Of a stretch of 64,000 nucleotides of DNA, positions 7,723-52,298 are shown in pieces (within the stretch, counting starts at the first letter, position 1; every line of letters starts with the position of its first letter). The stretch is from Candidatus Parcubacteria bacterium (GTDB taxonomy: Bacteria; Patescibacteriota; Minisyncoccia; Minisyncoccales; JAGMDC01). The notes below the pieces were generated by a model that was not told the DNA's origin, did not search any database, and saw only the letters and a list, made by a program, of their open reading frames with translations. The translations under genes and the position numbers were made by a program. The stretch is from assembly GCA_023131895.1 (NCBI GenBank), contig JAGLYZ010000002.1, positions 240,474 through 304,473 on the forward strand. The letters run 5' to 3'.

Positions 7723-7726
7723 ATAA

Positions 7727-8041
7727 TTAAAAACTATCTTCTATTTTTTTTATTAAAACTTCATAAGGAACAAGACCGACTATTCTATCTTTTACTTGGC
7801 CTTGTTTAAAAATCATTAAGGTAGGAATCGCCTCAATACCATAAGTCATAGCCGTTCCTCTTGCTTCGTCTACATTAAGTTTCCCGACCTTAATTTTCTC
7901 CTGATAATCTTCGGCTATTTTTTCTACCATCGGAGCAATAACTTTGCATGGAGGGCACCAATTAGTATACATATCAACTAAAACAGGCTTGTTACTTTCC
8001 AACACTTCCTCTTTAAAATTTTGGTCATTTAAATCAATCAT
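7727..8041 (-). CDS. trxA: Thioredoxin
   Basis: WCPPCK active site and a thioredoxin-sized protein. The start is taken at MIDLND (8041) and overlaps the ftsZ stop; the track start at 8062 is probably an upstream extension. Confidence 0.88.
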   Translation of the reverse strand: MIDLNDQNFKEEVLESNKPVLVDMYTNWCPPCKVIAPMVEKIAEDYQEKIKVGKLNVDEARGTAMTYGIEAIPTLMIFKQGQVKDRIVGLVPYEVLIKKIEDSF

Positions 8042-13716: not shown

Positions 13717-14283
13717 ATTCTTATAGTGGGGTTAGGCAATCCTGGAGAAAAATATAAAAGGACGCGGCATAATGTTGGATTTATGGTTTTAGATGAATTT
13801 AAAAAAATTCATAGTTTTTCTGATTGGCAATTAAAAAAGAAATTTAAAGCAGAAATTTCAGAAGGCACTTTAACAGGCAAAAAAATAATTTTAGCAAAAC
13901 CGCAAACTTTTATGAACGAGTCAGGCAAAGCAGTAAAAATCATGCAACAAGAGACAAGAGACAAGAGACAAGAACTATATGTTATTCATGACGACTTGGA
14001 TTTGGGATTAGGAAAAATGAAAATCGTTCAAAACCGCGGCTCTGCCGGACACAAAGGAGTACAGTCAATTATTAATGAGATTGGCAATAAAAACTTTATC
14101 CGTTTTAGAATTGGAATTAAAAATAAAGAACTGGAAATCCAAAATATTGAGGATTTTGTTTTAAAAAAATTTACAAAAGATGAAAAAAAAGTTATAAAAG
14201 AAACTGTGCAAAAAACCTGCAAGGCAATTGAAATGGCAATAAAACAAGGCATTGAAAAAACAATGTCAGAATTTAATAAATAA
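13714..14283 (+). CDS. pth: Peptidyl-tRNA hydrolase
   Basis: 189 aa with GLGNPGEKYKRTRHNVGF N-terminal signature. Confidence 0.92.
   Translation: MILIVGLGNPGEKYKRTRHNVGFMVLDEFKKIHSFSDWQLKKKFKAEISEGTLTGKKIILAKPQTFMNESGKAVKIMQQETRDKRQELYVIHDDLDLGLGKMKIVQNRGSAGHKGVQSIINEIGNKNFIRFRIGIKNKELEIQNIEDFVLKKFTKDEKKVIKETVQKTCKAIEMAIKQGIEKTMSEFNK
13951..13971. repeat. Tandem heptamer (GAGACAA)x3 inside pth
   Basis: A perfect 3-unit tandem repeat, in frame, encoding ETRDKRQ. Confidence 0.85.
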
Positions 14284-18026: not shown

Positions 18027-18714
18027 ATCTTTTAATGGTTTTCAGAATCTTTTTATAATTTTTTTCTTTACAAATAATCCTTCCATTAACTATTACATTA
18101 GTAATATTTGGTTTTAAAAATTTTAAAATTTCTCCAGAGTGAGTAATCAAGAGAATTGAAATATCTTTTGCGAGCAGTTCTTTTTTAATTATCTCTGCTA
18201 CTTCTTTTATTTTCTTTAAATCCAAGCCAGAATCAATCTCATCAAAAATTACTAGCTTTGGTCTTAAAGATAAAATCTGTAATAATTCTGACATTTTTTT
18301 CTCTCCACCGGAAAAATTAACATTAATCTCTCTATCTAATAAGTAGAGCGAGAACTGTTCTCGCTCTATCAGAGCGAGAACAGTTCTCGCTCTAGATCTC
18401 GCGTGGATCTTCTCTAATAATTGAGAAAGTTTTACTCCTTTTACAGCTGGCGGATTTTGCCAAGTTAAAGCAATCCCTAATTTAACTCGTTTTTCAGGAG
18501 AAAGTTTGGTAATATCTTCTTTATTAAAAAAAATCCTGCCTTCTATAATTTTAACATTCGGATTCCCTAAAATCACTTGAGCAAGAGTGGATTTCCCGCT
18601 GGCATTTGGACCAAGAAGAGCTTGTATCTCCCCTTTTTTTATTGTTAAATCAATCCCTTCTAATATCTCCTTACCATCGCCTGAAACTTTTAAATTTTTA
18701 ATTTCTAAAAGCAT
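17980..18714 (-). CDS. sufC: Fe-S cluster assembly ATPase SufC
   Basis: 244 aa ABC ATPase with Walker A GPNASGKST, signature FSGGEKK and Walker B VIFDEIDSGLD. Confidence 0.9.
   Translation of the reverse strand: MLLEIKNLKVSGDGKEILEGIDLTIKKGEIQALLGPNASGKSTLAQVILGNPNVKIIEGRIFFNKEDITKLSPEKRVKLGIALTWQNPPAVKGVKLSQLLEKIHARSRARTVLALIEREQFSLYLLDREINVNFSGGEKKMSELLQILSLRPKLVIFDEIDSGLDLKKIKEVAEIIKKELLAKDISILLITHSGEILKFLKPNITNVIVNGRIICKEKNYKKILKTIKRYGYEKCKKCELLSDK
18345..18410. repeat. Two tandem 23-bp GAGAAC-N-GTTCTC palindromes plus an AGATC..GATCT palindrome inside sufC
   Basis: agagcgagaac-t-gttctcgctct at 18345-18367, agagcgagaac-a-gttctcgctct at 18371-18393, then agatctcgcgtggatct. In frame, encoding SRARTVLALIEREQFSLY. 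Confidence 0.9.
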
Positions 18715-26235: not shown

Positions 26236-27933
26236 CTATTTTTTCTGCACGAATTTGCAGGGATGTTTAGCAATTATTACTGAAACCTCTTTTTTGTTTA
26301 AAAAATCCTTAATTGCTTTTACAAATTCTTCCTGTTTGACCGGGTCAATTGTTTTTAAATGCTTAACTCCGCAGGCTTTAACAATATTTTCAATACTTAC
26401 TCCATCTGGTTCAGTCGGCGCGCTTGGATGCGGCTGATGGCCAGTCATAGCAGTAGTGGAATTATTCATAATAATTATTAATGGGTTTGATTTATTAAAA
26501 ACCGTGTTAATCAAACCAGTAATGCCGGAATGGAAAAAAGTTGAATCACCAATAAAAGTAATCAGTTTTTGCTCGCTTACCTTCTTAATCCCATGAGCAA
26601 TACCAATTGAAGAACCCATACAGTAAAGATAATCCTGAACATTGTGGGGAGAAAATCCTGCCAACATATAACAGCCAATATCACCGCCGAAAATTACATC
26701 CATACCTTTTGCAGCTTTTTTGACGCCTCCAAAAACCAACCAATAAGGACAGCCATGGCAAAGCTGAGGATGACGACGAGGAATTTTTCTAGCTTCGCCA
26801 GATCTGGCAGAGCCAAACAATTCCAATTTTTTATCAGTAAATTTGGCGATTGCCTGAATAACTATTTCAGGTTTCAACTCGCCGACTTCTGGTACTAAAT
26901 CTTTGCCAATAATCTTTAAATCACAATTTACTTCTTTTGCCATTCTTATTACTTCATTTTCTAAATATGGTTCTAATTCTTCTACTATTAAAACCTTATC
27001 CAAATTTTTAATAAAATTTTTAATTTTTTTCTCTGGCAAGGGATGAAAAAATCCAAGCTTTAAAACCGGCAAAGAAATATTTAATTCCTTTAATGCTTCT
27101 TTCACATAGAGATAAGAAACTCCGGAAGTAATAATTCCGAGCTTCGCAGAGACCCGACCTCCGCCAATTCTGGCGGAGGTCGGGTCTCTTCCGGCTTCTC
27201 TTCTAATTAAATTCAATTTGCTTTTCTCGCTATACTCACGTATTTTTTCAATCTTATCCAAAAGTTCCTTATGCATTTCCATAACTCGAGGCGGCATTGT
27301 TACAAATTTCTTATTGTCCTTTATAAATTTTCCATGGAGAACTGTTCTCAATGTTTTTAATTTGTCTAGTTTGACTGGAGCGCTTTGGTGCGCTACTCTT
27401 GTTGTCTCTCTAATCATTATCGGAATTTCAAATTTTTCAGATAAATCAAAAGCAAATTTAATAAAATCCTTACATTCTTGAGGGATTGACGGTTCAAGAA
27501 CAGGAATATTGGCTAAAGCCGCAAAAGCCCGGCTGTTCTCTTCTGATTGAGCCGAGCTATGGCAGGAAGGATCATCTGCTATTAAAATTACCATTCCTCC
27601 CTTAACTCCAGAATAAACCAATGGAAGTAAAAAATCAGAAGCAACATTTAAACCAAAATTTTTCATTGCCACCAAAGAGCGCAAACCAGAAAAAGAAGCG
27701 CCTCCTGCTGCTTCTATCGCGACTTTTTCATTAACAGAAAACTCAAAATATAAGCTTTTAATTTTGTCTTTAGAGTTTTGAATCTGATAAAAACTATTAC
27801 CGATCTCTGAAGCCGGCGTCCCAGGATAAGTGGAAACAAACTGAACGCCTGCTTCCAAAGCGCCTCTTACTATTGCCTCGTTTCCTAAAAGAATAACTTT
27901 TTTGTTTGGTTTCTCTAAAATATTTTCAAACAT
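26236..27933 (-). CDS. iorA: Indolepyruvate:ferredoxin oxidoreductase alpha subunit (TPP-binding)
   Basis: 565 aa with N-terminal LLGNEAIVRGALEAG...STYPGTPASE and TPP block GDIGCY. No C-terminal 2x[4Fe-4S] CxxCxxCxxxCP motifs are visible. Confidence 0.8.
   Translation of the reverse strand: MFENILEKPNKKVILLGNEAIVRGALEAGVQFVSTYPGTPASEIGNSFYQIQNSKDKIKSLYFEFSVNEKVAIEAAGGASFSGLRSLVAMKNFGLNVASDFLLPLVYSGVKGGMVILIADDPSCHSSAQSEENSRAFAALANIPVLEPSIPQECKDFIKFAFDLSEKFEIPIMIRETTRVAHQSAPVKLDKLKTLRTVLHGKFIKDNKKFVTMPPRVMEMHKELLDKIEKIREYSEKSKLNLIRREAGRDPTSARIGGGRVSAKLGIITSGVSYLYVKEALKELNISLPVLKLGFFHPLPEKKIKNFIKNLDKVLIVEELEPYLENEVIRMAKEVNCDLKIIGKDLVPEVGELKPEIVIQAIAKFTDKKLELFGSARSGEARKIPRRHPQLCHGCPYWLVFGGVKKAAKGMDVIFGGDIGCYMLAGFSPHNVQDYLYCMGSSIGIAHGIKKVSEQKLITFIGDSTFFHSGITGLINTVFNKSNPLIIIMNNSTTAMTGHQPHPSAPTEPDGVSIENIVKACGVKHLKTIDPVKQEEFVKAIKDFLNKKEVSVIIAKHPCKFVQKK
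27149..27188. repeat. Perfect 17-bp-stem GC-rich hairpin inside iorA
   Basis: gagacccgacctccgcc-aattct-ggcggaggtcgggtctc. In frame, encoding GRDPTSARIGGGRVS. Confidence 0.92.
27337..27349. repeat. GAGAAC-N-GTTCTC core inside iorA
   Basis: gagaac-t-gttctc, read in the gene as LRTVLH. Confidence 0.7.
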
Positions 27934-30407: not shown

Positions 30408-32849
30408 TTAACAAACAATATTAATTAATCTTCCTTTAATAAATACCACCTTCTTGATGGGCTTGTCCTCTATCCATTTTTTAACTTTTTCTCTCTCTAA
30501 TGTCAATCTTTTTGCTTCTTCTTCTGAAATGTCTATTTCAACTTCTATTTTGTCGCGCATTTTGCCATTAATCTGGATGATTAAAAAGATTTTTTCTTCT
30601 TTAATTAACTTCGGATTATACTTGGGCCATTTTTCTTTAAAAATAGATTTTTTATAACCTAAATTTTGATAAATCTCTTCTGAAATATGCGGCGCAAAAG
30701 GAGAAAGCAAAATCAACATTTTTTCAATTGTATCTTTGCCAACTTCTTTTTTATCTTCCAAACCCAAATTTACAAACTTCATAAAACCAGCAATGATGGT
30801 ATTGAATTTTGTTGCTTCTAAATCCTCATCTATTTTTTTATTAAGTTGATGAATCGCTCTTATTATTTTGGGACTGCTTTTTTCGTTTTTAGAACACTCC
30901 AAACTCAATTTCCAAACTTTTTCTAAAAACCGATAAACACCTTTCACTCCTTTAGCGCTCCAGACAATTGCCTGACCAAATGGACCCATAAACATTTCAT
31001 AAACACGCAAAGTATCTGCTCCGTATTCTTTAATAATATCATCAGGATTAACTACATTGCCAAATGACTTTGACATTTTTCTTCCATCTTCAGCTAAAAC
31101 TATACCATGAGAAGTCCTTCGAGTATAGGGTTCTGCCTGCGGAGCAATGCCAATATCAAAAAGAAATTTATACCAAAAACGAGAATATAGAAGATGCAAA
31201 GTTGTGTGCTCCATGCCGCCGTTATACCAATCTACTGGCAGCCAATATTTTAATTTTTTGGAATCAGCTAACGATTTATTATTATCAGTATCAGTATAGC
31301 GCATAAAATACCAAGAAGAACCAGCCCAGTTAGGCATAGTGTCGGTTTCTCTTTTAGCTGGTCCCTTGCATTTTGGACACTTGATATCAACCCAATCTTT
31401 AATTTTTGCTAAAGGCGATTCACCAGTGCCTGTTGGCTGATACTTTTCAATATAAGGAAGTTTTACTGGTAAATCTTTCTCCGGCACTGGAATTGCACCG
31501 CATTTTTCACAATGAATAATTGGCATCGGTTCTCCCCAGTAATGCTGTCTGGAAAAAACCCAGTCCCTTAGTCTGTAGTGAACTGTTTTTCTGCCAAAGC
31601 CCTGCTTTTCAGCACATTTTAGCATTTCATCTCTTGCTTTTTTTGAACTCAAACCCGAAAATTGTCCGGAGTTAATCAAAACTCCGTCTTCTACAAAACA
31701 TTCATTTAACTTGGGGAGAACGGTTCTCGTTGATTTCGTCAACGAGAACCGTTCTCGCGAGACTATTACTTCTTTGACTGGCAATTTATATTTTTTAGCA
31801 AAATTAAAATCTCGTTTGTCATGAGCAGGAACTACCATTACTGCCCCTCCTCCATAAGTCGCCACTATATAATCTCCTATCCAAATAGGAATTTTTTCAT
31901 TATTTACTGGATTAATACAATAAGAGCCAGTAAAAACTCCTGTTTTTTCTTTTTTTAATTCTGTTCTTTCAAAATCACTTTTTTTCTTTGATTGTTCAAT
32001 ATAATTAATTACTTTCTCATTGTTGCCATCTGTAATTAGCTTTTCAATCAAGGAATGTTCCGGAGCTAAGACAACAGCTGTCACCCCGAAAATAGTGTCA
32101 GTCCTAGTAGTAAAAACTTTTATTGTGTCTTGAGAATTTTCAATTTTGAAATTAATTTCTATGCCATAACTTCTGCCAATCCAATTTATCTGCTGGGCTT
32201 TAATTTTTTCTAAATAATCAAGCTTTTCTAAATCATCTATCAGCCGGTCAGCATATTTAGTGATTTTTAACATCCATTGTTTTTTTATTTTTTTTTCTAC
32301 TTGAGTATTGCAGCGCTCGCACTTACCGGAAACCACTTCTTCATTGGCTAAGCCAATTTTGCAGGAAGGACACCAGTTAATAGGTATTTCTGCCTGATAA
32401 GCCAAGCCCTTTTCAAAAAGCTGAAGAAAAATCCATTGAGTCCATTTGTAATATTTTGTGTCAGTGGTATTAATTTCCCTATTCCAATCAAAAGAAAGAC
32501 CTAAATTTTTAAATTGTCTTTTAAAATTGGCGATATTTTTTTTAGTTGCTTCTTGAGGATGAATCCCTGTTTTTATAGCATAATTTTCTGCCGGCAAACC
32601 AAAAGCATCCCAGCCAATAGGAAACAAAACATTATATCCTTCCATTCTTTTTTTTCGAGCAACAGCGTCTAAGGCAGTATAAGGTCTTAAATGACCAACA
32701 TGAAGCCCTTCTCCTGAAGGATAAGGAAATTCAATTAAAATATATTTTTTAGGTCTCTTTGAAAAATCTTGAGCTCTATATATTTCTGATTTTTCCCAAG
32801 TTCTTTGCCATTTTGGCTCAATTTTTTGCGGTTCGTATTTTTTCATCAT
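30408..32849 (-). CDS. leuS: Leucine--tRNA ligase
   Basis: 813 aa class I aaRS with HVGH, the KMSKS motif (RKMSKSFGN) and a CP1 editing domain. Confidence 0.95.
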   Translation of the reverse strand: MMKKYEPQKIEPKWQRTWEKSEIYRAQDFSKRPKKYILIEFPYPSGEGLHVGHLRPYTALDAVARKKRMEGYNVLFPIGWDAFGLPAENYAIKTGIHPQEATKKNIANFKRQFKNLGLSFDWNREINTTDTKYYKWTQWIFLQLFEKGLAYQAEIPINWCPSCKIGLANEEVVSGKCERCNTQVEKKIKKQWMLKITKYADRLIDDLEKLDYLEKIKAQQINWIGRSYGIEINFKIENSQDTIKVFTTRTDTIFGVTAVVLAPEHSLIEKLITDGNNEKVINYIEQSKKKSDFERTELKKEKTGVFTGSYCINPVNNEKIPIWIGDYIVATYGGGAVMVVPAHDKRDFNFAKKYKLPVKEVIVSRERFSLTKSTRTVLPKLNECFVEDGVLINSGQFSGLSSKKARDEMLKCAEKQGFGRKTVHYRLRDWVFSRQHYWGEPMPIIHCEKCGAIPVPEKDLPVKLPYIEKYQPTGTGESPLAKIKDWVDIKCPKCKGPAKRETDTMPNWAGSSWYFMRYTDTDNNKSLADSKKLKYWLPVDWYNGGMEHTTLHLLYSRFWYKFLFDIGIAPQAEPYTRRTSHGIVLAEDGRKMSKSFGNVVNPDDIIKEYGADTLRVYEMFMGPFGQAIVWSAKGVKGVYRFLEKVWKLSLECSKNEKSSPKIIRAIHQLNKKIDEDLEATKFNTIIAGFMKFVNLGLEDKKEVGKDTIEKMLILLSPFAPHISEEIYQNLGYKKSIFKEKWPKYNPKLIKEEKIFLIIQINGKMRDKIEVEIDISEEEAKRLTLEREKVKKWIEDKPIKKVVFIKGRLINIVC
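31716..31756. repeat. Nested double GAGAAC-N-GTTCTC palindrome inside leuS
   Basis: gagaacggttctcgttga-tttcg-tcaacgagaaccgttctc. The two 18-nt arms are perfect inverted copies and each arm contains its own palindrome. In frame, encoding SRERFSLTKSTRTVLP. Confidence 0.9.
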
Positions 32850-32929: not shown

Positions 32930-33790
32930 TTAAATTTTAAACAACTTTTTAGCGTTTGTACTGGTGATTTCAGCTATTTTCTCAAGAGGGATATTTTTAA
33001 TTTTAGCAATATGTTCGGCAATGTATTTGATAAAAATGGGTTCATTTCGGCCCGCCTTCGCTAAAGCTTTGGCGGGCAAAGGCGGAGTTAAAAAAGGACA
33101 ATCTGTTTCAATCAAAATTCTATCTAATGGCGTTTTTTTAATTATTTCATCAAGGTCTAATTTAAAAACAATTCCATTAAAACCTAAATAAAATCCCATT
33201 TCTAAAAATTTCTCTGCCTGCTCCCAAGTACCGGTAAAAGAATGGATTACCGAGGTCAGACCTTCTATAGGAGGTCTGACCTCAAGTATTTCTATTAAAT
33301 CGTCGTGAGCCATTCGGCAGTGAAAGATTACTGGCAGATTTAATTCTTCGGCTAATTTTAATTCCTGCTCAAGAAGTGCTTTTTGTTTTTCTTTAAAAAG
33401 CGCAAGCTTTTTCTTTGTTTTCGGCTTATAGTAATAATCCAATCCAATTTCGCCAATAGCCACTACTTTTTTAGATTTTGCTAATTCTTTGTATTTATTG
33501 AAATTAAAATTCTCTTCTAATATATCTTCTAAGTTTTGAGTTTTAAGTTGTGGCTTTGACTTTTGAGTTTTGACTTTTGAGTTTTGTTTAATATTAATAG
33601 GGTGAAGTCCAATCGCCGCATATACTCTTTCATTATAATCCTTTGAAATTTCAACTGCTTTTTTTGAGGTCTCATAATTTGTCCCTACATTTATCATCCA
33701 AATATTATTATCTAAACATCTCTTTATAACTTCATCTCTATCTCTGTCAAAAGCAGCAAAATTAAGATGAGCATGAGTATCTACAAGCAT
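32930..33790 (-). CDS. tatD: TatD-family metal-dependent hydrolase/DNase
   Basis: 286 aa with MLVDTHAHL, the ...ETDCPFLTP... blocks and NEP. About 30 aa longer than usual because of three repeat insertions. Confidence 0.9.
   Translation of the reverse strand: MLVDTHAHLNFAAFDRDRDEVIKRCLDNNIWMINVGTNYETSKKAVEISKDYNERVYAAIGLHPINIKQNSKVKTQKSKPQLKTQNLEDILEENFNFNKYKELAKSKKVVAIGEIGLDYYYKPKTKKKLALFKEKQKALLEQELKLAEELNLPVIFHCRMAHDDLIEILEVRPPIEGLTSVIHSFTGTWEQAEKFLEMGFYLGFNGIVFKLDLDEIIKKTPLDRILIETDCPFLTPPLPAKALAKAGRNEPIFIKYIAEHIAKIKNIPLEKIAEITSTNAKKLFKI
33049..33085. repeat. AAGCTT-centred GC-rich element inside tatD
   Basis: ggcccgccttcgctaaagctttggcgggcaaaggcgg. Its reverse complement closely matches argS 47682-47708. 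Encodes PLPAKALAKAG between the CPFLTP and RNEP motifs. Confidence 0.8.
33252..33283. repeat. Perfect 12-bp-stem hairpin inside tatD
   Basis: gaggtcagacct-tctatagg-aggtctgacctc. In frame, encoding EVRPPIEGLTSV. Confidence 0.9.
33531..33587. repeat. G/T-rich ~57-nt repeat shared with ileS
   Basis: aagttttgagttttaagttgtggctttgacttttgagttttgacttttgagttttg is about 80% identical to 44810-44866. Encodes NSKVKTQKSKPQLKTQNL. Confidence 0.85.
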
Positions 33791-33825
33791 AATTAAAAAG
33801 TTAAAATGTAAAAGTAAAATCTTCT

Positions 33826-33962
33826 TGCAAAGAAAACAGATTTTTCAAATTAGGTTGGCGAGGATTCTGAATTTTCCGAAGACGTGTCGGAGCCCTTTAG
33901 GGTAAAGCGCGAGGAAATTTCGAAATCCGAGCAAACTGTAATGATTTAAAAATCTTGTTTTT
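33826..33962. repeat. Structured intergenic element between metG and tatD
   Basis: Long outer stem aaaacagatttttcaaat / atttaaaaatcttgtttt encloses GC-rich sub-hairpins. The scaffold resembles 41395-41498. Confidence 0.7.
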
Positions 33963-33969
33963 GTAGCCT

Positions 33970-35427
33970 TTACTTAATTCGCGGAAAAAGCGATTTGCTT
34001 TTTTTGGCTTTGATTTGTTTCAATATCTTTTCTGATGTTTCTGGTAAAAACGGCTCTAACATTTCAGCTATATTTGTTAAAGCAAATAACAACTCACTAA
34101 TTACTAATAACTGTCTCTCGGATTTCTCCCAAGGCCTTTCCTTTTCTATATATCTATCGCAATAACTAATTAACTTCCAAATTTCTTCCAATGCTTCATT
34201 AAATTTAAAATTATCTAAGGCATTTTTATATTTTTTCTCTGTATTTCTAATAGCTTTGGTTACTTTTAAATTTTGCTTGTCTCGTAGCAAGCTTGCTCTG
34301 CTTCGGGAAGTTTTTATTTTTTCTGCCATGGTCAAGACCCGAGCAGTAAGATTTCCCAGCCCTTTTGCCAAATCTGCATTATATCTTGCTTCAAATTTTT
34401 CATAAGTAAAGTCACCATCTTCAGTTGGAGAAATCTCCCTCAAAAGAAAATACCTAACAGCATCAGTCCCGTATTTTTCAACTAATACAAATGGGTCAAC
34501 AACATTTCCCAAAGATTTTGACATTTTCTGACCGCCAGATGTGATAAAACCGTGAACAAGAATAATTTTAGGTAGTTTTAGCTTTAAAGAAAGCAATATG
34601 CCAAGCCAAATTATAGCATGGAATCTGATTATATCTTTTCCAATACAATGTACATCAGCTGGCCAGAATTTTTTGAATTTTTCATTGTTCTGAGCATAGC
34701 CAAGAGCAGAAACATAATTTACAAGGGCATCGCTCCATACATAAATGGTCTGATTTTTGTCTTCTGGCACAGGAATTCCCCATTTCGAATTTTGCCTTGA
34801 GCGAGAGAAACTAATATCTTTTAACCCTTGCTTTACAAAACTTAAAATCTCATTTTTTCGGGTTTGAGGAATAATTTTAACCTTATCTTTTTCTATCGCC
34901 TTTTTTATTTTTTTTGAGTACTTTGAGAGTTTAAAAAAATAATTCTCTTCTTCAATAATCTCTGGCCTCTTTTTGTGAATAGGACATTTTCCATTCACTA
35001 AATCTTTCTTCGTAATAAAGGCTTCACAACCAATACAATAAAATCCTTTATATTTTTTCTTGCAAATATCGCCATTTTTTTTTAATTTCAGCCAAACCTT
35101 TTTTACTGTCGGCCAATGACGTTTTTGATCAGTAGTTCTGATAAAATCATCGTTAGATAAATTCAAAACATTTGTTAGGTTTCTAAACTTATCTGAAATC
35201 TCATCTGTAAATTCTTTTGGGTTCTTTCCAGCTTTTTCAGCCGCCTTTAAATTTTTTTGGCCATGTTCATCTGTTCCGGTTAAAAAGAAAGTTTCTTCAC
35301 TCAAAAACCGATGATATCTAGCAAGAACATCGGCTTGAATCAGTTCTTGAGCAAATCCTATATGCGGCAGAGCATTTGTATAGGCTAAACTACTAGTGAT
35401 ATAAAATTTTTTCTTTTTGCTTGACAT
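33970..35427 (-). CDS. metG: Methionine--tRNA ligase
   Basis: 485 aa class I aaRS with HIGF (HIGH-like), KMSKS and CxxC zinc knuckles. Confidence 0.93.
   Translation of the reverse strand: MSSKKKKFYITSSLAYTNALPHIGFAQELIQADVLARYHRFLSEETFFLTGTDEHGQKNLKAAEKAGKNPKEFTDEISDKFRNLTNVLNLSNDDFIRTTDQKRHWPTVKKVWLKLKKNGDICKKKYKGFYCIGCEAFITKKDLVNGKCPIHKKRPEIIEEENYFFKLSKYSKKIKKAIEKDKVKIIPQTRKNEILSFVKQGLKDISFSRSRQNSKWGIPVPEDKNQTIYVWSDALVNYVSALGYAQNNEKFKKFWPADVHCIGKDIIRFHAIIWLGILLSLKLKLPKIILVHGFITSGGQKMSKSLGNVVDPFVLVEKYGTDAVRYFLLREISPTEDGDFTYEKFEARYNADLAKGLGNLTARVLTMAEKIKTSRSRASLLRDKQNLKVTKAIRNTEKKYKNALDNFKFNEALEEIWKLISYCDRYIEKERPWEKSERQLLVISELLFALTNIAEMLEPFLPETSEKILKQIKAKKSKSLFPRIK
34262..34320. repeat. AAGCTT-centred in-frame element inside metG
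   Basis: acttttaaattttgcttg + core (agcaagcttgct, a perfect 12-bp palindrome) + agtttttatttt. The flanks match the argS element. Encodes KTSRSRASLLRDKQNLKV. Confidence 0.75.
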
Positions 35428-35461: not shown

Positions 35462-35743
35462 CTATAATAATTTTCTTCTTTTGCGATAGTCGTCTTTTCC
35501 TTTTTCTATAAAAATATCTACAATTTCTATTCGTTTCTCTTTTGAGAAAAGAGCAAACAAAATACGCCACCGGCCGATGCGGAGGCGATAACCAAACTCA
35601 GTATCTTGAATTTTTCTAACTTGTGGATGTTCAAAAATATCTACTGAAAGTTTTTTGAATTCGTTATAAAATTTCTGTTTTAAATTATTCGGCAATCTAT
35701 TGAATTCTCTTTCTGCCCGTTTTGTTAATTGAACTTCAAACAT
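35462..35743 (-). CDS. RelE/ParE-family type II toxin
   Basis: 93 aa with the RelE-like pattern GYRLRIGRWRILF. Its ATG overlaps the upstream antitoxin stop (ATGA). Confidence 0.8.
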   Translation of the reverse strand: MFEVQLTKRAEREFNRLPNNLKQKFYNEFKKLSVDIFEHPQVRKIQDTEFGYRLRIGRWRILFALFSKEKRIEIVDIFIEKGKDDYRKRRKLL

Positions 35744-43207: not shown

Positions 43208-43960
43208 TCAGAAATTTTCCAAAACAAAAGAAAGATAATCTTCAGAAATTGTTTCTAATAACTCTTTATTTTTTTCTTCAACTTTTAACTTTGATAGAAC
43301 AGACCAATCTTTTTGCAGAAAAAGCCGTAAAATTTTTATAACATCTGGCTTTATCTCTATTAATTTAGTCAAAGAATCCTCTTTTTTAATTTCCTGAGCG
43401 CAAACATTACAAACAATTCCCCCTTGCTCTGGACTGAAGTATAATTGAAATGGTTTTAATTCTTTTCCACAAGATGAACATTTATAAAACTCTGGCTGAT
43501 ATCCTAAAGCAGAAAGAAGATTCCAAAGAAAATAGTAGTATATAATTTCTAATTTCCAATTTCCAATTTTCATTGAATTTTCAATTTTCAATTTCTCAAA
43601 AACTTCTTTCAGTAATTCCCAAATTTTCTCGTCTTTTTCTTCATCTTTAACTAATTTATCCAAGACATCGCTAATTTGAAAAGCAGTTTTTAATTTTTCT
43701 AAATCTTTTCTTATATCTGGAAAGCTATTAATCAAAATAGTATCAGTCAAGGTTTTATAAGTTTTTCCTTGAATAAATTCAATTTCTGAAAGATAAAAAA
43801 GCCCTGCTCCGCCCCTTAGCTTTGATTTAATTTTTCTAATTGCTTTTCCTAAAATCTTTAACTTTCCAAAATCCTTTGTATAAACTACAAATAATTTATC
43901 TGATTCTCCTTGAGCAATCTCTGTTATAAAAAAACTTTTTGTCCTATAATGAACAGCCAT
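43208..43960 (-). CDS. recO: DNA repair protein RecO
   Basis: 250 aa with an OB-like N-terminus and a CxxC...CxxC zinc finger (CSSCGK...CNVC). Contains an AATTTYC low-complexity insertion at 43547-43595. Confidence 0.75.
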   Translation of the reverse strand: MAVHYRTKSFFITEIAQGESDKLFVVYTKDFGKLKILGKAIRKIKSKLRGGAGLFYLSEIEFIQGKTYKTLTDTILINSFPDIRKDLEKLKTAFQISDVLDKLVKDEEKDEKIWELLKEVFEKLKIENSMKIGNWKLEIIYYYFLWNLLSALGYQPEFYKCSSCGKELKPFQLYFSPEQGGIVCNVCAQEIKKEDSLTKLIEIKPDVIKILRLFLQKDWSVLSKLKVEEKNKELLETISEDYLSFVLENF

Positions 43961-43962
43961 AA

Positions 43963-46900
43963 TTAAATTCTTCTAATTCCCAGCCAGAGTTCTTGGCCTT
44001 CTATTTTAAAAGTTTTCTCAATATCAAAAACTCTTTTTGGTCTGTCACCCTCTAAAAGGTCCTTAACTACAATCTCTTTTAAAATTGTCTTTTTATTTTT
44101 CTTTAAAATTTCACAGAGCTTTTCTTCCCCAGAATATCTAACAAACACCCGGTGTTTGGGCTTATAACCAGCTTTTTTACGCATTTCTTGAATATTTCGA
44201 ATAATCTCCCTGATTATTCCTTCTTCTCTTAACTTCGGCGTAATTTTAGTATCTAATTTAAAGGTTTTATCAAAGGTAATTTTTTTCACATTTACTTCAT
44301 CTTTAATCAATCCTAATAATTCTTTATTCCTTTTTAGCTTTTCATTTTTACTTTTTACTTCGAGCAAAGCGAGCGGCTGACGGACTTTTATTCCTGCCTT
44401 TGCTCGTTGAGCCAATCCCTTTGCTACAATTTCCCGCACTATTTTCATTTTTTCTTCTAATTTCTTATCAATTGCCTTCTTATCTGGTTTTGGCCAATCT
44501 TCTAAATGAACAGATTTATTTTTCGAAGAATTTTGGCATATTTCTTCTGAAATAAATGGAACAAACGGGGCTGTCAACTTAGCTAAGCTAAGAAGAACAA
44601 ATCCCAAAGTTTGCGACGCTTCTTGAAAATCTTTTTTTGTTTTGGGGTTCTGAAATCTCTTCCTAGATCTTCTCACATACCATAAAGATAAATCGTTGAT
44701 AACAAAATCCTCTATATCTCTGGCCGCTGAAGTAATATCGTAATTATCTATCTTTTCAGAAACCCCTGAAATTAATTCATTTAATCTGGAAATTATCCAT
44801 CTATCTAACAAGTTTTGAGCTTTGCGTTGTGGCTTTGCACTTTGAATTTTGAGCTTTGAGTTTTCTTTTGGAACATATGTTTCAAAAAAGGTATATACAT
44901 TATAGTAAGTAAGAATAAATTTCTTTAATGCCTTATCTACATCTTTTTCTGTAAATAGTTTGGAATCGCCTGGCTGATTTATAGTATAAAAATACCAGCG
45001 AGCAGCATCTGAACCATATTTTTCAATTATATGCCAGGGATCAACCACATTGCCCTTGGACTTTGACATTTTTTCTCCCTTTTCGTCTAAAACATGGCCT
45101 AAAGAAATAACATTTTTATAAGGAGTGCCAAAATCTAATAAAGTTGAGATTGCCAACATGGTATAAAACCAGCCTCTTGTTTGATCAATTGCTTCGCAAA
45201 TATAATCAGCTGGAAATTGATTTTTAAATTTTTCTTGCTCAAAAGGGTAATGATACTGGGCAAACGGCATTGCGCCAGAATCAAACCAGCAATCAATCAC
45301 TTCTGGAACTCGCTTCATTAAATTATTACATTTAGGACACTCAAATTTTACTTCATCAATATATGGTTTGTGAAAATCCAATTCTTGATTTTCTTTATTA
45401 TAAGGAAAAAGCTTAAATTCTAATCTCCTTAATTCTCCAACATCCATACTTCTATCTTGCCAGTGTTGTGTAATTTCTTGTTGAGAAAATCCTTTAACAA
45501 TACTTTCCGCCATTAAGATTGGACCGCCATGGCTAACAATTAAAATATTCTTATTTTTGTATTTTTTATCTACTTCTTTTAGAAAATCGTAGACTCGCTT
45601 TTTAACATCTGTGTAGCTTTCTCCTTTAAACGGCCTTTTGTCAAATTTATCTATTTTCCCTTCAAATAATTTACGGTACTCTTTAATATTTTTACCATCA
45701 AAAATACCAATATTTACTTCTATTAAACGTTTATCATATTTTACTTTCTTTCCAATTTCTTTTGAAATAATTTCAGCTGTTTGCTTAGTTCTTAAAAAAT
45801 CAGAAGAGAATATTAAATCTATTTTTTCTTTTTTTAACTCTTGCACTGCTTTTTTAATTTGCTCCCTGCCTTTTTTAGTCAAAGGACAGCCAGCTCCCTT
45901 ATTTTTATAAGAAAGAATATGCTTTTTGAAGCACTCTGATTCTCCATGTCTTAAAATAAAATATTTATTAGTGCTGAATTTCTGTTTTAATAAATCATCT
46001 TTGCTTCCGATAATTTCTTGATAACCGCATTTTTTACACTGCCAAATAGGCAATGGAGTTCCCCAATATCTTTCTCTGGAGATAGCCCAATCCTTTAATC
46101 CTCTCAACCATTCGCCGAACCTGCCCTGCTTTAAATGCTTAGGAACCCAGTTTATCTTTTCGTTATTTTTAATCAAATCTCTCTTAACTTTTGTCATTTT
46201 AATAAACCAACTCTTCTGGGCATAGTAGATTAAAGGCGTCTTGCATCTCCAGCAAAAAGGATAGTCATGTTCATACAGTTCTTCTTTAAAAAGCAGCTTT
46301 CTCTTTTTTAAATCTTCAATAATCAGCGGATCAGCCTTTTTTACAAACAAATTATTCCACTTATATCCTGAAGTCATCATCTTGCCCTGCTCATCTACCG
46401 TAATCAAAACAGGAAGATTGTTTTCTTTGCTAACGTTCATATCATCCTCACCAAATGCTGGCGCAATATGAACCAATCCTGTGCCATCCTCTGTTGTTAC
46501 AAAATCTCCAGCAACTATCTTATAAATGTTTGGAATTTGGAATTTATACAAGGGTTTGTATTTAAGGCCGATTAAATCTTTTCCTTTAAATTCCTCTATA
46601 ACTTCGCCTTCTATGCCAGATTCTTTTATTCTGTTTTTCGCCAAAATCAAAAATTCATTATTAACTTTTACCTTAGCATAAATAAACTTCGGGTTGACTG
46701 CTACTGCTGCATTACCAGGCAAAGTCCATGGCGTTGTAGTCCAAACAAGCAAATATGTATTTTTCTGCCCTTTGATAGAAAACTTTACATAAATTGAGTT
46801 TTCTTTGACTTTCTTGTATCCTTGCGCCACTTCATGGGAAGATAAAGATGTTCCGCATCTGGGACAGTATGGCACAACTTTATAATCCTTATATAAAAGT

Positions 46901-47391
46901 TTTTTCTGCCATATCTGTTTTAAGAGCCACCAAACGGTTTCAATATAATCGGTTTCGTAAGTAATATAAGGATTTTTCATATCCAGCCAATAACCAATTT
47001 TCTCTGTTAAATCTTCCCAGTCCTTTTTATACTGCCAGACAGATTCCTGGCATTTTTGATTAAATTTTATAATTCCAAATTTCTCAATATCTTTCTTGCT
47101 TCTTAGCCCTAATTTTTTCTCAACCTCCAATTCAACTGGCAGACCATGCGTATCCCAGCCAGATTTTCTGATTACCTTAAAGCCATTCATTGTCTTATAA
47201 CGGCAAATCATATCTTTAAATACTCTTGCTTCAAGATGATGAATACCCGGCTTGCCATTGGCAGTAGGCGGCCCTTCATAAAAAACAAAATTGGGCGCTT
47301 TTTTTCGCTGCTCAATTGATTTTTCAAAAATCCTGTTTTCTTTCCAGAATTTTATAATCTTTTTTTCTAACTTAGAAAATTCAACTAACAT
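43963..47391 (-). CDS. ileS: Isoleucine--tRNA ligase with internal extra domain
   Basis: 1142 aa with a HIGH-type motif (PGIHH), KMSKS, a CP1 editing domain and zinc knuckles. Carries a ~190-aa insertion at about aa 476-665. Confidence 0.93.
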   Translation of the reverse strand: MLVEFSKLEKKIIKFWKENRIFEKSIEQRKKAPNFVFYEGPPTANGKPGIHHLEARVFKDMICRYKTMNGFKVIRKSGWDTHGLPVELEVEKKLGLRSKKDIEKFGIIKFNQKCQESVWQYKKDWEDLTEKIGYWLDMKNPYITYETDYIETVWWLLKQIWQKKLLYKDYKVVPYCPRCGTSLSSHEVAQGYKKVKENSIYVKFSIKGQKNTYLLVWTTTPWTLPGNAAVAVNPKFIYAKVKVNNEFLILAKNRIKESGIEGEVIEEFKGKDLIGLKYKPLYKFQIPNIYKIVAGDFVTTEDGTGLVHIAPAFGEDDMNVSKENNLPVLITVDEQGKMMTSGYKWNNLFVKKADPLIIEDLKKRKLLFKEELYEHDYPFCWRCKTPLIYYAQKSWFIKMTKVKRDLIKNNEKINWVPKHLKQGRFGEWLRGLKDWAISRERYWGTPLPIWQCKKCGYQEIIGSKDDLLKQKFSTNKYFILRHGESECFKKHILSYKNKGAGCPLTKKGREQIKKAVQELKKEKIDLIFSSDFLRTKQTAEIISKEIGKKVKYDKRLIEVNIGIFDGKNIKEYRKLFEGKIDKFDKRPFKGESYTDVKKRVYDFLKEVDKKYKNKNILIVSHGGPILMAESIVKGFSQQEITQHWQDRSMDVGELRRLEFKLFPYNKENQELDFHKPYIDEVKFECPKCNNLMKRVPEVIDCWFDSGAMPFAQYHYPFEQEKFKNQFPADYICEAIDQTRGWFYTMLAISTLLDFGTPYKNVISLGHVLDEKGEKMSKSKGNVVDPWHIIEKYGSDAARWYFYTINQPGDSKLFTEKDVDKALKKFILTYYNVYTFFETYVPKENSKLKIQSAKPQRKAQNLLDRWIISRLNELISGVSEKIDNYDITSAARDIEDFVINDLSLWYVRRSRKRFQNPKTKKDFQEASQTLGFVLLSLAKLTAPFVPFISEEICQNSSKNKSVHLEDWPKPDKKAIDKKLEEKMKIVREIVAKGLAQRAKAGIKVRQPLALLEVKSKNEKLKRNKELLGLIKDEVNVKKITFDKTFKLDTKITPKLREEGIIREIIRNIQEMRKKAGYKPKHRVFVRYSGEEKLCEILKKNKKTILKEIVVKDLLEGDRPKRVFDIEKTFKIEGQELWLGIRRI
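44810..44866. repeat. G/T-rich ~57-nt repeat shared with tatD
   Basis: aagttttgagctttgcgttgtggctttgcactttgaattttgagctttgagttttc. In frame, encoding NSKLKIQSAKPQRKAQNL. Confidence 0.85.
45397..45966 (-). other. Histidine phosphatase (PGAM-like) domain embedded in IleRS
   Basis: YFILRHGES (RHG catalytic motif), SSDFLRTKQTA, IEVNIGIFDG and IVSHGG (second catalytic His). It lies between the IleRS blocks ...PIWQCKKCGYQEIIGS and DFHKPYIDEVKFECPKC. Confidence 0.7.
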
Positions 47392-47393
47392 AT

Positions 47394-48989
47394 TTACATT
47401 TTTTTTGGCGCGGAAATGCCCATTAAATCAAGAGCATTTTTTAAAACGATTTTAACCGCCTCAATTAAAGCTAAACGGCTTTGGAAAAGCGCTTTGTCTT
47501 CTGTAATAACTTTGCAATCGCGATAAAACTGATGAAAAACATTTGCTAAATCAAAAGCGTATTGAGGAATTCTCTGAACCTGATAATCTTTAGTAGTATC
47601 CTCTATAATCTCTGGAAATCTAATAAGCTGTTTAATAAGTTTTAATTCAGTTGGATGATTTAATACTTTTAAGTTTTGCTTGCCCGCCGAAGCTTTAGCG
47701 AAGGCGGGAGTTTCGTATTTTGACTTTGCGAGGATACTGTGTATCCGAGCATAGGCGTATTGTATATAATAAACCGGATTTTTCTCTGACTGTTCTCTAG
47801 CTAATGCTATGTCAAAATTCAAATGTGTATTTATAGATTTTTGCAGAAAAAAGAACCTCATTACATCAGAACCAACTTCATCAAGCAACTCATCAATAGT
47901 AAAATAAACTCCTTTTCTTTTTGACATTCTCTGTTTTTCCCCTTTTCTTAAAATAGTTACAAACTGATGTAGAATAATTTCCAGTTTATCTTTATGTCCT
48001 AAAGCTTCTATTCCAGCTTTTAGTCCTGGAATATCTCCATAATGGTCAGTTCCCCAAACATTTATCACTTTAGTAAATTTTTTCTTTTCAAATTTATATC
48101 TATGATAGGCGATATCTCCAGCTAAATATGTTTTAGAACCATCTTGTTTAACTAACACCCTATCTCTATTATCACCATACTTTGAGGATTTAAACCATAA
48201 AGCTCCATCTTTTTTATAAACCAGCTTTTTCTTTTTTAAAAACTCTATTATTTCATCAACTTTTCCTGATTTATAAAGCCGGCTTTCAAAAAACCATTCA
48301 TCATATTTAATACCCATTTTCCGAACTGTTTTTTTAATCATTTCATCTATAATAATCTTTGCTGATTTTTGTCCAGCTTTATATGGATCTTTTTCTTTTA
48401 TTTGTTTATGAAGCTTATCTATATATTCTCCCTTATAAACTGCTTCTTTATCTTTTAAAACAGAATGGCCAAGAGCTAAAATCTGTTTTCCAAAATCATT
48501 GATATAGTATGCTTTTTCTATTTTAAATCCTGATTTTTTTAAAACATTTGCTAAAACATCGCCGAACGGTCCTCCTCTGGCATTACCAATAGTTAAAGGA
48601 CCAGTAGGATTTGCTGAAATAAACTCTATTTGGATTTTTTTATTTTTACCAATATTTAAATCTCCGAATTTTTCTCTTTTCTTTAAAATTTCTTTAACTT
48701 GTTTCTGCAAATATTCTTTAGAAATAAAAAAATTGACAAACCCGGGCTTTACAATCTCAACTTTCTCTAAAAACTCTGGATCAATAATCAATAAGTGATT
48801 ATTAATAATTTTTGCTATTTCCATTGGATCTTTCTTAAGGGTTTTACTAATCTGCATAGCGATATTTGTGGAATAATCGCCATATTTTTCCTGTTCCGGA
48901 TGCTCAATAGAAAAATCAATCCTATCTATAGAAAATTTTGCTTTAAAACATGCCTTTTCAACTATATTTTTTATATCCTCTCTAATCAT
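47394..48989 (-). CDS. argS: Arginine--tRNA ligase
   Basis: 531 aa with an N-terminal Arg-tRNA-binding domain, SANPTGPL (HIGH region) and a C-terminal DALR anticodon-binding domain. Confidence 0.92.
   Translation of the reverse strand: MIREDIKNIVEKACFKAKFSIDRIDFSIEHPEQEKYGDYSTNIAMQISKTLKKDPMEIAKIINNHLLIIDPEFLEKVEIVKPGFVNFFISKEYLQKQVKEILKKREKFGDLNIGKNKKIQIEFISANPTGPLTIGNARGGPFGDVLANVLKKSGFKIEKAYYINDFGKQILALGHSVLKDKEAVYKGEYIDKLHKQIKEKDPYKAGQKSAKIIIDEMIKKTVRKMGIKYDEWFFESRLYKSGKVDEIIEFLKKKKLVYKKDGALWFKSSKYGDNRDRVLVKQDGSKTYLAGDIAYHRYKFEKKKFTKVINVWGTDHYGDIPGLKAGIEALGHKDKLEIILHQFVTILRKGEKQRMSKRKGVYFTIDELLDEVGSDVMRFFFLQKSINTHLNFDIALAREQSEKNPVYYIQYAYARIHSILAKSKYETPAFAKASAGKQNLKVLNHPTELKLIKQLIRFPEIIEDTTKDYQVQRIPQYAFDLANVFHQFYRDCKVITEDKALFQSRLALIEAVKIVLKNALDLMGISAPKKM
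47665..47722. repeat. AAGCTT-centred GC-rich in-frame element inside argS
   Basis: acttttaagttttgcttg + gcccgccgaagctttagcgaaggcggg + agtttcgtatttt. Encodes ETPAFAKASAGKQNLKV. Confidence 0.8.
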
Positions 48990-51728: not shown

Positions 51729-51767
51729 TTTTACCCCCCCTTATTCTTTTTTTAAATTACAATTTTC

Positions 51768-51849
51768 TTTTCTTTATTATAACAGACTTTAGTCTGATAT
51801 ATCAAATCTTTTCTTTATTATAACAAACTTTAGTTTGATATATCAAGTC
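51768..51849 (-). promoter_or_regulatory. Tandem duplicated (2 x 41 bp) consensus promoter with spacer palindrome
   Basis: Each unit on the minus strand reads TTGATA, an 18-nt spacer, then TATAAT. The spacer palindrome is cagac-taaa-gtctg in the proximal copy and caaac-taaa-gtttg in the distal copy. Confidence 0.65.
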
Positions 51850-52298
51850 TCTGATTTGCTGTAGCGCTTTTTTTCAATAAAATCATTGGCTTTTTTGAGA
51901 ACTTCTTTAGTATTATCAAATTTAAGCCGCTTTGTTGCCTGCTCATATAGCAGCCACTGAAAGCCAATATGTTCAGGAGAAAGCTTTATTTTTTCTATTT
52001 TTGTTTCAGCTAAATAGAAAGTGACTATCTTAAAAATGTTTTCCTTCTTAAATTTAAAAAAATATTTTATCCATTCTTTAAATCCATTAACAAATTTTAA
52101 ATCTTTAATTCCTGTTTCTTCTTCGGCCTCTCTTTTCACTGTTTCTAATTCTTTTTCTCCTTTTTCAATATGGCCTTTGGAAAAATCCCAATAATCTTCC
52201 TGGGATCTTGAACCAGAAGGATAATGTAAAAGAAGATAATAAATTTTATCTTTTTCTTTTCTAAAAATTACTGCTCCAGCAGATTTTTCAAAAGGCAT
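51843..52298 (-). CDS. NUDIX hydrolase
   Basis: 151 aa with Nudix box GHIEKGEKELETVKREAEEETGI. Confidence 0.88.
   Translation of the reverse strand: MPFEKSAGAVIFRKEKDKIYYLLLHYPSGSRSQEDYWDFSKGHIEKGEKELETVKREAEEETGIKDLKFVNGFKEWIKYFFKFKKENIFKIVTFYLAETKIEKIKLSPEHIGFQWLLYEQATKRLKFDNTKEVLKKANDFIEKKRYSKSET

Follow-up and report, generated by a model that had tools for sequence, protein, structure and literature searches.

How can a core gene be occupied by several kinds of repeat DNA and still encode an intact enzyme? This question is raised by the tatD gene (32930-33790, minus strand) in a 64-kb stretch of DNA from a Candidatus Parcubacteria bacterium (GenBank contig JAGLYZ010000002.1, positions 240,474 to 304,473), hereafter the window, to which all coordinates refer unless another locus is named. 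The gene contains a GC-rich hairpin (element 1), a doubled palindrome (element 2) and a heptanucleotide array (element 3). The explanation that we favor, and consider reasonably probable, is that these are short repeats found throughout the lineage that occupy permissive loops of TatD and that were made by replication-linked processes together with recombination and filtered by selection. Part of this explanation is that repeats of all three classes are widespread in coding sequence throughout this Parcubacteria lineage. The phenomenon is lineage-wide, and tatD is a good example of it, though not an exceptional one.

Three repeat segments in the loops of an intact TatD hydrolase

The tatD gene is located between leuS (30408-32849) and metG (33970-35427) in the AT-rich window (~33% GC) and is an intact open reading frame (ORF) of 286 aa, the product of which is 100% identical to the NCBI protein 'TatD family hydrolase' of Candidatus Parcubacteria bacterium. 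The protein matches the Pfam family TatD_DNase (PF01026) over residues 3-285 with a score of 255 bits (E=9e-76; curated cut-off, 27), and the metal-binding and catalytic positions H6, H8, E114, H157, H183 and D230 are invariant across 33 TatD homologs. The AlphaFold2 model, built on a 33-homolog alignment, has a mean predicted local distance difference test (pLDDT) score of 88.7 and reaches target-normalized template modeling (TM) scores of 0.82-0.89 with the solved TatD structures 1j6o, 6l25, 1yix and 1xwy. Judging by this model, tatD is a working TatD-family hydrolase gene, with the activity of the product predicted.

A first-pass annotation had marked three repeat segments in the gene, at 33049-33085, 33252-33283 and 33531-33587. 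All three are present at these positions, and all consist of repeat-type DNA in loops that vary by insertion and deletion. Segment 1 encodes PLPAKALAKAG (residues 237-247) between the ETDCPFLTP and RNEP motifs, and its description as lying next to a conserved active-site motif is fair because it begins 7 residues past the metal-binding Asp230. The TatD peptides encoded by the three elements are LPAKALAKAG, EVRPPIEGLTSV and NSKVKTQKSKPQLK. All three segments lie in coil between regular secondary-structure elements, and these are the weakest-scoring parts of the AlphaFold2 model: pLDDT falls below 50 at residues 71-84, in segment 3, and the means over 10-residue blocks are 78 for residues 171-180, 76 for 231-240 and 66 for 241-250. 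As modeled, the three repeat classes sit in the three least constrained surface loops of TatD.

At 286 aa, the product is long compared to the solved TatD structures (254-273 aa), as the first-pass annotation had held for the family, but it is ordinary among the Parcubacteria homologs, which span 259-340 aa. Nor do the three segments account for the excess, as had been proposed. When aligned by HMMER with T. maritima TatD (1j6o), the protein has extra residues around segment 3 (~22), at segment 1 (~5), at segment 2 (~1) and in a separate 7-residue insertion at YKPKTKKKLALF (KPKTKKK...). The latter is not repeat DNA; it is present clade-wide, with P123, K124, F132, K133 and Q136 invariant. Given these contributions and the ordinary length of the protein for its clade, the segments alone do not explain the size of TatD.

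A GC-rich hairpin dispersed across genomes

Element 1 is a GC-rich quasi-palindrome of ~30 nt (33050-33080, minus strand) that encodes LPAKALAKAG, residues 238-247 of TatD. Its coding strand in tatD reads TTTG-CCCGCC-AAAGCTTTAGCGAAG-GCGGGC, and a third arm-like CCGCC, at 33081-33085, provides two Pro codons. The 26-nt core of the element folds into a GC stem of 6-7 bp with a symmetric GAA/GAA internal loop and an apical stem of 2 bp. The sequence GGCCCGCCTTCGCTAAAGCTTTGGCGGGC (33049-33077, encoding PLPAKALAKAG) has two matches with at most 3 mismatches in the window, compared to none in 100 shuffles. The second copy (47682-47710, minus strand) is located inside argS (47394-48989), in the orientation opposite to that of the gene, is identical to the tatD copy in 26 of the 29 bases and encodes TPAFAKASAGK. 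This copy lengthens a loop by 5 residues relative to the solved ArgRS structure 3fnr, and the ArgRS of the window is the sole carrier of the peptide among 120 ArgRS homologs.

The wider family was delineated by searching metagenome contigs for the exact 19-mer AAGCTTTAGCGAAGGCGGG from element 1, so that the matches are a lower bound: at least 124 copies in at least 120 contigs with a GC content of 33-68%. Among the 124 copies listed, 54 are found on contigs with less than 46% GC and 70 on contigs with up to 68% GC. The family consensus is YTTG-CCCGCC-GAAGCTTTAGCGAAG-GCGGG, that is, cttGCCCGCCG-AAGCTTTAGCGAAGGCGGG, given as cttGCCCGCCGAAGCTTTAGCGAAGGCGGG, and the tatD copy is one base off the metagenome consensus CCCGCCGAAGCTTTAGCGAAGGCGGG. 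The borders of the element are sharp, with conservation ending abruptly on both sides of the consensus in the copies listed. A longer form, with the additional 5' arm GCGGGC-YTG, is represented by 19 of the 55 low-GC copies listed. We considered arm-like 5-mers as a two-sided target signature and rejected this possibility; the 5-mers are enriched upstream only (19/55 vs 1/55 downstream, with a 4% background), which points to a longer form of element 1 rather than to a target.

Four of the six frames of element 1 are open, encoding ARRSFSEGG, PAEALAKAG, PAFAKASAG and PPSLKLRRA. This property, along with a length divisible by 3, would allow the element to settle inside essential genes. In the copies listed, the peptides in the ORFs that span the element come from exactly these four stop-free frames (the first one as ARRSFSEGG or RRSFSEGG), and at least 14 long ORFs of the low-GC metagenome contigs contain element 1, each of them reading it in an open frame. 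The host ORFs of the low-GC contigs, named by reading their translations without a database search, can be recognized as housekeeping genes, for TatD, PEP synthase (ppsA), RNase HII (rnhB), a MiaB-type enzyme, MnmA, QueA, TrmD, methionine aminopeptidase (map), Fic, FemAB, a pseudouridine synthase and a UvrD-like helicase that has two copies. In MnmA, the element occupies the same site in opposite orientations on two contigs.

Some copies adjoin tRNA genes. Within 15 nt of such a gene lie 18 of the 124 listed copies, and 12 of these overlap the end of a tRNA gene called by ARAGORN by 3-5 nt. Where read (L103, L112, L121-L123, L150, L162 and L164), the overlapped end is the 5' end, starting with GCGGG or CGGG, and the tRNAs include tRNA-Gly, tRNA-Pro and tRNA-Cys. 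Other copies are located 3' of a tRNA gene, three of them followed by a T-run in a terminator-like arrangement; the tRNA-adjoining loci also include L092, L101 and L107. Rfam searches of the window (at the gathering threshold) and of six element-bearing loci (in E-value mode) detected only tRNA and tmRNA; the hairpin matched no family. In BLAST comparisons with collections of plasmids and phages, element 1 had no match or only partial ones at chance level, and a scan of viral contigs yielded just two with the element.

A separate arrangement was observed in a soil contig of 58% GC (L127, 1924-3119), where two 102-nt inverted repeats, 98% complementary and each containing the element 1 19-mer, enclose two small ORFs that form a cassette and, by eye, resemble HicA and HicB.

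Perfect palindromes inside genes

Element 2 (33252-33283), which encodes EVRPPIEGLTSV (residues 170-181), is the perfect hairpin with a 12-bp stem described in the first-pass annotation, with a loop of 8 nt; its description as an insertion was not borne out, as it adds almost no length. The RNA folds at -24.8 kcal/mol, compared to -9.4 +/- 2.7 for shuffled sequences (z = -5.8), and none of the 200 shuffles folds as well. The hairpin is built from a 13-nt palindrome, GAGGTC-W-GACCTC, that is present twice, as GAGGTC-A-GACCTC and, after a 7-nt spacer, AGGTC-T-GACCTC. The central bases of the two units are complementary, which indicates an inverted, not a direct, duplication. There is no second full copy of element 2 in the 64-kb window, so it is to be regarded as a member of a palindrome class and not of a dispersed element family.

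The class is conspicuous in the window, with six perfect stems of at least 12 bp, compared to 0.5 expected, all six inside ORFs. The leuS palindrome (31716-31756), GAGAAC-G-GTTCTC ... GAGAAC-C-GTTCTC, forms a perfect 18-bp stem (-31.2 kcal/mol, z = -7.6) at a site that is ~11 aa longer than in the closest ortholog; neither this palindrome nor element 2 is assigned to a strand. The same doubled build as in element 2 is seen in the hairpins of an ABC ATPase gene (18344-18394, 24-bp perfect stem) and a 2-oxoacid:ferredoxin oxidoreductase gene (27148-27189, 19-bp perfect stem), and there are further perfect stems in topA (14882-14910, 14 bp) and in an unannotated ORF (60407-60441, 16 bp). Two of these last four hairpins were folded, at -44.6 and -43.6 kcal/mol (z = -10.7 and -9.6).

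The palindrome GAGAAC-N-GTTCTC is present 7 times at 5 loci (14890, 18350/18376, 19627, 27337 and 31716/31744), all between 14.9 and 31.8 kb of the window. It is also found in L001 and L084, including tatD site 2 (the position of segment 2) of the latter, and has zero occurrences in 835 kb of DNA from other bacteria. The window begins with parB-parA and contains no canonical parS (TGTTNCACGTGAAACA, with up to 2 mismatches). One could speculate that the GAGAAC palindromes are centromere-like or protein-binding sites that replace parS.

At tatD site 2, the arms of the hairpin are GAGGTC/GACCTC in the window, GAAGTC/GACTTC (in a 14-bp stem) in L083, and GAGGTT/AACCTC in P0009 and L001. The differences between the arms are compensated in every case, such that the perfect stems would be kept either by selection or by arm-to-arm conversion.

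Heptanucleotide arrays

Element 3 (33532-33586, minus strand), reported by the first-pass annotation as a 57-nt repeat, is indeed repetitive: Tandem Repeats Finder identifies period 7 with 8.0 copies. It encodes NSKVKTQKSKPQLKTQNL, residues 70-87; the sense strand consists of (CAAAACT/CAAAAGT)x4 - CAAAGCCACAAC - TTAAAACTCAAAACT, and the array folds at 0 kcal/mol, that is, it is unstructured. The element is present at the identical tatD site in L084/P0004. A second copy (44799-44868, minus strand), 80% identical over 70 nt and encoding NSKLKIQSAKPQRKAQN, is located inside ileS (43963-47391), at a site that is short in L001 and L009 and occupied by a different array, (AGGTTAC)5, in L081. Thus, two of the three tatD segments recur in other genes of the window, in agreement with the high element load that had been suggested for this region.

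Two more arrays are found in pth (13947-13973, (ACAAGAG)x3.9) and recO (43544-43595, (GGAAATT)-type, x7.9). The length of the Pth protein is unchanged relative to solved structures, so heptamer arrays can overwrite sequence as well as add to it. In 577 kb of Patescibacteria DNA, period 7 accounts for 50 of the 109 tandem arrays (compared to 7 for period 14, 13 for period 8 and 7 for period 9), and in 835 kb from other bacteria, for 16 of 56; the comparison is a rough one because the score threshold disfavors periods below 7 and some of the 'other' loci might be mislabeled. Among the perfect arrays of the window, three have period 7, vs 0-1 for periods 5-12. Many heptamer arrays are ~57 nt long and bipartite, with four units, 1-4 odd bases, and three or four more units, and their sense strand is A/C-rich and G-poor.

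The same loops carry different heptamers in different relatives, namely, L083, L046, L002 and L007 for MetRS, and L081, L082, L084 and L008 for LeuRS; in ArgRS, heptamer arrays are found in the loop of most of the 120 homologs. Such differences between orthologous loops are what concerted evolution of old arrays would produce. That bacteria have an excess of heptamer repeats has been described previously, for intergenic cases, along with the idea of slippage linked to the polymerase footprint (PMC4692102).

In metG of the window, at the place where relatives have ~57-nt heptamer arrays, there is a GC-richer stretch (34255-34300, minus strand), TCCCGAAGCAGAGCAAGCTTGCTACGAGACAAGC, encoding the peptide SRSRASLLRDKQ. 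This stretch, which includes a 10-nt palindrome, may be a decayed element of another family.

Variability and mosaic structure of tatD

We compared the three sites in the DNA of 34 Patescibacteria tatD genes, most of which represent distant loci, with the closest relatives identified by exact-protein look-up. The basal form of site 1, CPYLTPxPxRGKRNEP, is 16 residues long and is present in 25 of the 34 orthologs. GC-rich hairpins enlarge this site in the window, L006, L008, L015, L082 and L084; in the window, the gain over the basal 16-residue segment C231-P251 is 5 residues. An element-1-type peptide is found at site 1 in 19 of the 120 best protein homologs, in the majority as PLPAEALAKAG (forward frame 2), but also as AARRSFSEGG (forward frame 1; P0051 and P0118) and, in the reversed orientation, as AASAKASAS (P0004/L084). 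At least three frame and orientation states at this position imply that a single site was hit repeatedly.

Site 2 has a basal length of 14-16 residues and shows no net length gain in the window compared to the orthologs. Palindromes or long hairpins are present there in ~10 of the 34 genes, up to a 34-nt perfect palindrome in L034 and a 72-nt hairpin in L022, and heptamer arrays are present in ~6, such as (AAGTTAT)3 (L081), (AACTACA)n (L015) and (AAATTCT)n (L016). Site 3 consists of 9-13 residues in 14 genes and of ~21-30 in most of the others (ETGLVKIKxDxEE...); with the heptamer element, in the window and L084, it reaches 33 residues, and a heptamer-type loop is found in 13 of the 120 best protein homologs. 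Because most relatives have a loop of ~18-20 aa at site 3, the heptamer element replaces a loop and does not fill an empty site.

Overall, the window is closest to L083 (87.5% aa identity in LeuRS; 86-93% nt identity in the flanks of tatD), although in the tatD of L083, site 1 is free of any element and the loop at site 3 is of the ordinary kind. Sliding-window nucleotide identity among five tatD sequences suggests a mosaic. Residues 25-67, 180-235 and 259-282 are closest to L083 (78-93% nt), residues 56-114 are closest to L084 (82-86%, vs 37-69% for L083), and residues ~234-256 are closest to L082 (80-87%, vs 50-70% for L083). The L084-like stretch also shares with L084 the indel state KELA-KS, and the L082-like stretch takes in the downstream RNEPIFIKYI, in place of which L083 has KNNPLGVKFV. 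In a neighbor-joining tree constructed without the variable sites, and without support values, the carriers of element 3 are polyphyletic and fall in three separate places. Because the element-bearing stretches are most similar to distant relatives that have the same elements, these sequence comparisons indicate that the segments were most likely gained by homologous recombination with alleles from other Parcubacteria, and that fresh insertions are less likely. The three independent insertions envisaged in the first-pass annotation are thus doubtful.

Other features of the region

The spacer between metG and tatD (33791-33969) contains a GC-rich, imperfectly self-complementary stretch (fold z = -2.4); at the position of this spacer, L081 and L082 have two small ORFs, of 53 and 114 aa. 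Just upstream of metG, there is a ParE-toxin-like ORF of 93 aa (35462-35743, minus strand; Pfam E=2e-6), and a similar one is found there in L083. At the metG position (7560-9997), L083 instead has an ORF that weakly matches LAGLIDADG, followed by one of 473 aa for which no Pfam hit is on record; the pair could represent a split or endonuclease-invaded MetRS gene.

The IleRS of the window (1142 aa; 43963-47391, minus strand) contains a complete His_Phos_1 domain at residues 478-642 (E=2e-37), inside the catalytic domain, and the L081 ortholog also has an inserted histidine phosphatase domain. Between rplT and a NUDIX hydrolase gene, the spacer contains 2.1 copies, 93% identical, of a 41-nt unit repeated in tandem (51766-51850).

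Origin of the repeats

From the observed anatomy and copy numbers of the elements, their positions in loops, the variability of the sites, the compensated changes in the arms and the mosaic similarity of tatD, we infer a series of steps by which these repeats could have originated and spread. Replication slippage would make heptamer arrays grow and homogenize; of the changes in essential genes, only those of 21 nt (three units) would survive, which would yield peptides with a 7-residue period. Palindromes would grow and become perfect by fold-back or template-switch copying between the arms, and the GC hairpin would be copied from existing copies into new sites. Of the resulting copies, selection would then retain only those that occupy a permissive loop, are read in an open frame and have a length divisible by 3. 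The element-bearing segments of tatD would have arrived when the gene recombined with homologous alleles from other Parcubacteria. When essentially every ORF in the 64-kb window (~60) was scanned with Pfam, only housekeeping genes were detected; a transposase, a repetitive extragenic palindrome (REP)-associated tyrosine transposase (RAYT), a reverse transcriptase and an integrase were not among them, and no target-site duplications were seen to flank the element copies. The combination of these two results favors replication-linked processes and recombinational spread.

Several points weigh against this scenario, and the same two results, no mobilizing enzyme found in the window and no target-site duplication seen, count among them. 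The site comparisons suggest replacement as often as pure insertion: length does not change with the pth array or at tatD site 2, and the 30-nt element at tatD site 1 brings a gain of only 15 nt. The recombination events are deduced from sliding-window identity among five sequences and from a tree that has no support values. Passive copying by itself poorly explains the base-for-base conservation of element 1 across contigs of very different GC content. The perfect stems of 18-24 bp in essential genes might equally reflect selection for function.

For element 1, a trans-acting single-strand transposase remains a serious rival, even though we regard active transposition as unlikely. Under this scenario, element 1, and perhaps the palindromes, would be non-autonomous elements similar to REPs or to MITEs (miniature inverted-repeat transposable elements), moved by a single-stranded DNA transposase (RAYT or an IS200/IS605-type HUH enzyme) encoded elsewhere, and the tatD copies would have arisen de novo. 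The sharp borders of element 1, its capacity to form a hairpin, its wide dispersal, the presence of both orientations at one site in tatD and in mnmA, and the conserved YTTG 5' of the arm are all compatible with such mobility, and RAYT-moved REPs, intragenic ones included, are documented (PMC3733652). However, the ORFs of the 64-kb window include no such enzyme, and element 1 lacks both the GTAG and the CGTC tag as well as a target-site duplication; REP families are normally species-specific, whereas element 1 spans contigs of 33-68% GC; and the mosaic flanks in tatD fit recombination better. Quite unlikely, in our assessment, though still a rival for the perfect hairpins, is that the hairpins are functional cis-elements selected at the RNA or DNA level, via ribosome pausing, RNase III cleavage and mRNA decay, termination or binding of dimeric proteins, with the peptides being by-products. 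The compensated changes in orthologous hairpin arms are what such selection would produce, but arm-to-arm conversion yields the same pattern without any function. Stems of 12-24 bp stay perfect although the encoded loops are unconstrained, some element 1 copies located 3' of tRNA genes precede a T-run in the manner of terminators, and GAGAAC-N-GTTCTC recurs in a window in which parB-parA come first and canonical parS is absent. Nevertheless, the same sites are short or unrelated in close relatives, Rfam gives no match, the intragenic positions are specific to loops rather than regulatory, and the heptamer array, being unstructured, offers no hint of a function.

It is hardly credible that nothing special occurs here and that the segments are lineage-specific TatD sequence that is repetitive by chance, or that the gene is a pseudogene or the product of faulty assembly. 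In line with this null explanation, segment 2 adds no length to the protein and 286 aa is normal for the clade. Nevertheless, ordinary conserved TatD sequence is ruled out by the copies in other genes, at frequencies never reached in shuffles, and by the hairpin z-scores of -5.8 to -10.7; a pseudogene, by the intact frame, the invariant catalytic residues and the confident model; and an assembly artefact, by the presence of the same elements in independent assemblies from many samples. At the opposite end, it is possible, if somewhat doubtful, that YTTG-CCCGCC-GAAGCTTTAGCGAAG-GCGGG represents an undescribed, ultra-small mobile element that is present across phyla without a linked transposase, hits the same sites again and again, forward or reversed, and adjoins tRNA 5' ends starting with GCGGG. 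Together with the heptamers and the self-correcting palindromes, such an element would point to a mutational regime, specific to the candidate phyla radiation (CPR), under which the surface loops of core proteins are continually rewritten.

Implications

Genomes of CPR bacteria (Patescibacteria) are tiny and streamlined, yet here the loops of core enzymes carry translated repeat DNA. The enzymes affected here include TatD, five aminoacyl-tRNA synthetases, RecO, Pth, TopA, an ABC ATPase and a ferredoxin oxidoreductase. If translated repeats in such loops are general in these bacteria, they account for much of the length variation and low-complexity sequence in CPR proteins, and caution is due before such segments are treated as functional insertions. 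The repeats would then also serve as natural markers of permissive loops and as a system for asking why period-7 repeats are favored in bacteria and how perfect palindromes persist inside genes. The potentially surprising parts could be the self-correcting palindromes and the 30-nt hairpin shared by contigs of very different GC content; the identity of element 1 across such contigs requires an explanation of its own.

Comparison with known systems

In the full-text literature, with most subscription journals outside the scope of the search, we found no description of repeats, heptamers, palindromes or in-frame insertions of this kind in CPR or Parcubacteria, or of diagnostic peptides such as RRSFSEGG and AEALAKAG. 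Analogous systems are known in other organisms. The Rickettsia palindromic elements (RPEs; Ogata et al. 2000), as far as summarized in PMC3184786, are ~105-146 bp long and confined to Rickettsia. According to the same summary, they resemble the elements described here in being palindromic repeats dispersed in a small, AT-rich genome, inserted in frame in housekeeping genes, with the peptide in a tolerated part of the protein and without a linked transposase. Unlike the RPEs as summarized there, the present elements are 27-57 nt long, reside in Patescibacteria and are, by our description, unrelated in sequence, and element 1 is also found in contigs of much higher GC content. We considered element 1 as a candidate RPE: it is a dispersed palindrome that is inserted in frame, but its length and hosts differ. 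Membership in the RPEs is excluded by size alone (27-57 nt vs ~105-146 bp).

Intragenic REPs, or 'REP-decorated proteins', belong to super-families tagged by GTAG or CGTC (Di Nocera et al. 2013, PMC3733652). REPs are 20-40 nt long and form GC-rich hairpins that often pair to build larger ones, and some copies are intragenic and translated; element 1, likewise, is a GC-rich imperfect palindrome in this size range with many copies. Different REPs can occupy one gene site in related species, as is the case with the tatD loops. The described REPs are, however, mostly extragenic and largely species-specific, and the GTAG REPs are linked to RAYT genes, whereas the element 1 consensus cttGCCCGCCGAAGCTTTAGCGAAGGCGGG contains neither tag and there is no RAYT gene in the window. 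As regards MITEs, element 1 has no terminal inverted repeats with a target-site duplication. Element 1 thus falls outside the described REP and RPE classes by tag, size and host, its separation from the RPEs being based on size and not on computed similarity.

Heptanucleotide simple sequence repeats (Mrazek 2007; the cyanobacterial short tandemly repeated repetitive sequences; GGGAATC in Xanthomonas), in the summary given in PMC4692102, share with the arrays described here the over-representation of period 7, the variation of length and sequence between close relatives at one locus and, sometimes, the arrangement in inverted pairs. In contrast to the published repeats of Xanthomonas and Nostoc, which that summary presents as intergenic and rare in coding regions, the arrays analyzed here are translated inside essential genes and have an A/C-rich, G-poor sense strand. 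None of the tatD, ileS, recO and pth arrays is intergenic, nor are those in the MetRS, LeuRS and ArgRS genes of the relatives.

The protein repeats of Borgs (PMC9879509) are similar in that they evolve rapidly, are arranged in tandem and in frame, and extend proteins by unstructured peptide. Unlike in Borgs, the unit here is 7 nt, such that the frame is kept by whole arrays only, and the hosts are core bacterial genes, not extrachromosomal elements. The Borg repeat units inside ORFs are reportedly multiples of 3 nt. In yeast mitochondria, GC clusters are short GC-rich palindromes that have spread in a very AT-rich genome and are present in frame in var1. These clusters are organellar, their sequence families are unrelated to the elements described here, and they have no known bacterial link.

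By analogy, then, the behavior of element 1 is nearest to that of intragenic REPs and Rickettsia palindromic elements, albeit without the tag of the former and the size of the latter. In-frame palindromic repeats and an excess of heptamers are known in other bacteria, and the tatD repeats are a phenomenon of a known kind, here in CPR.

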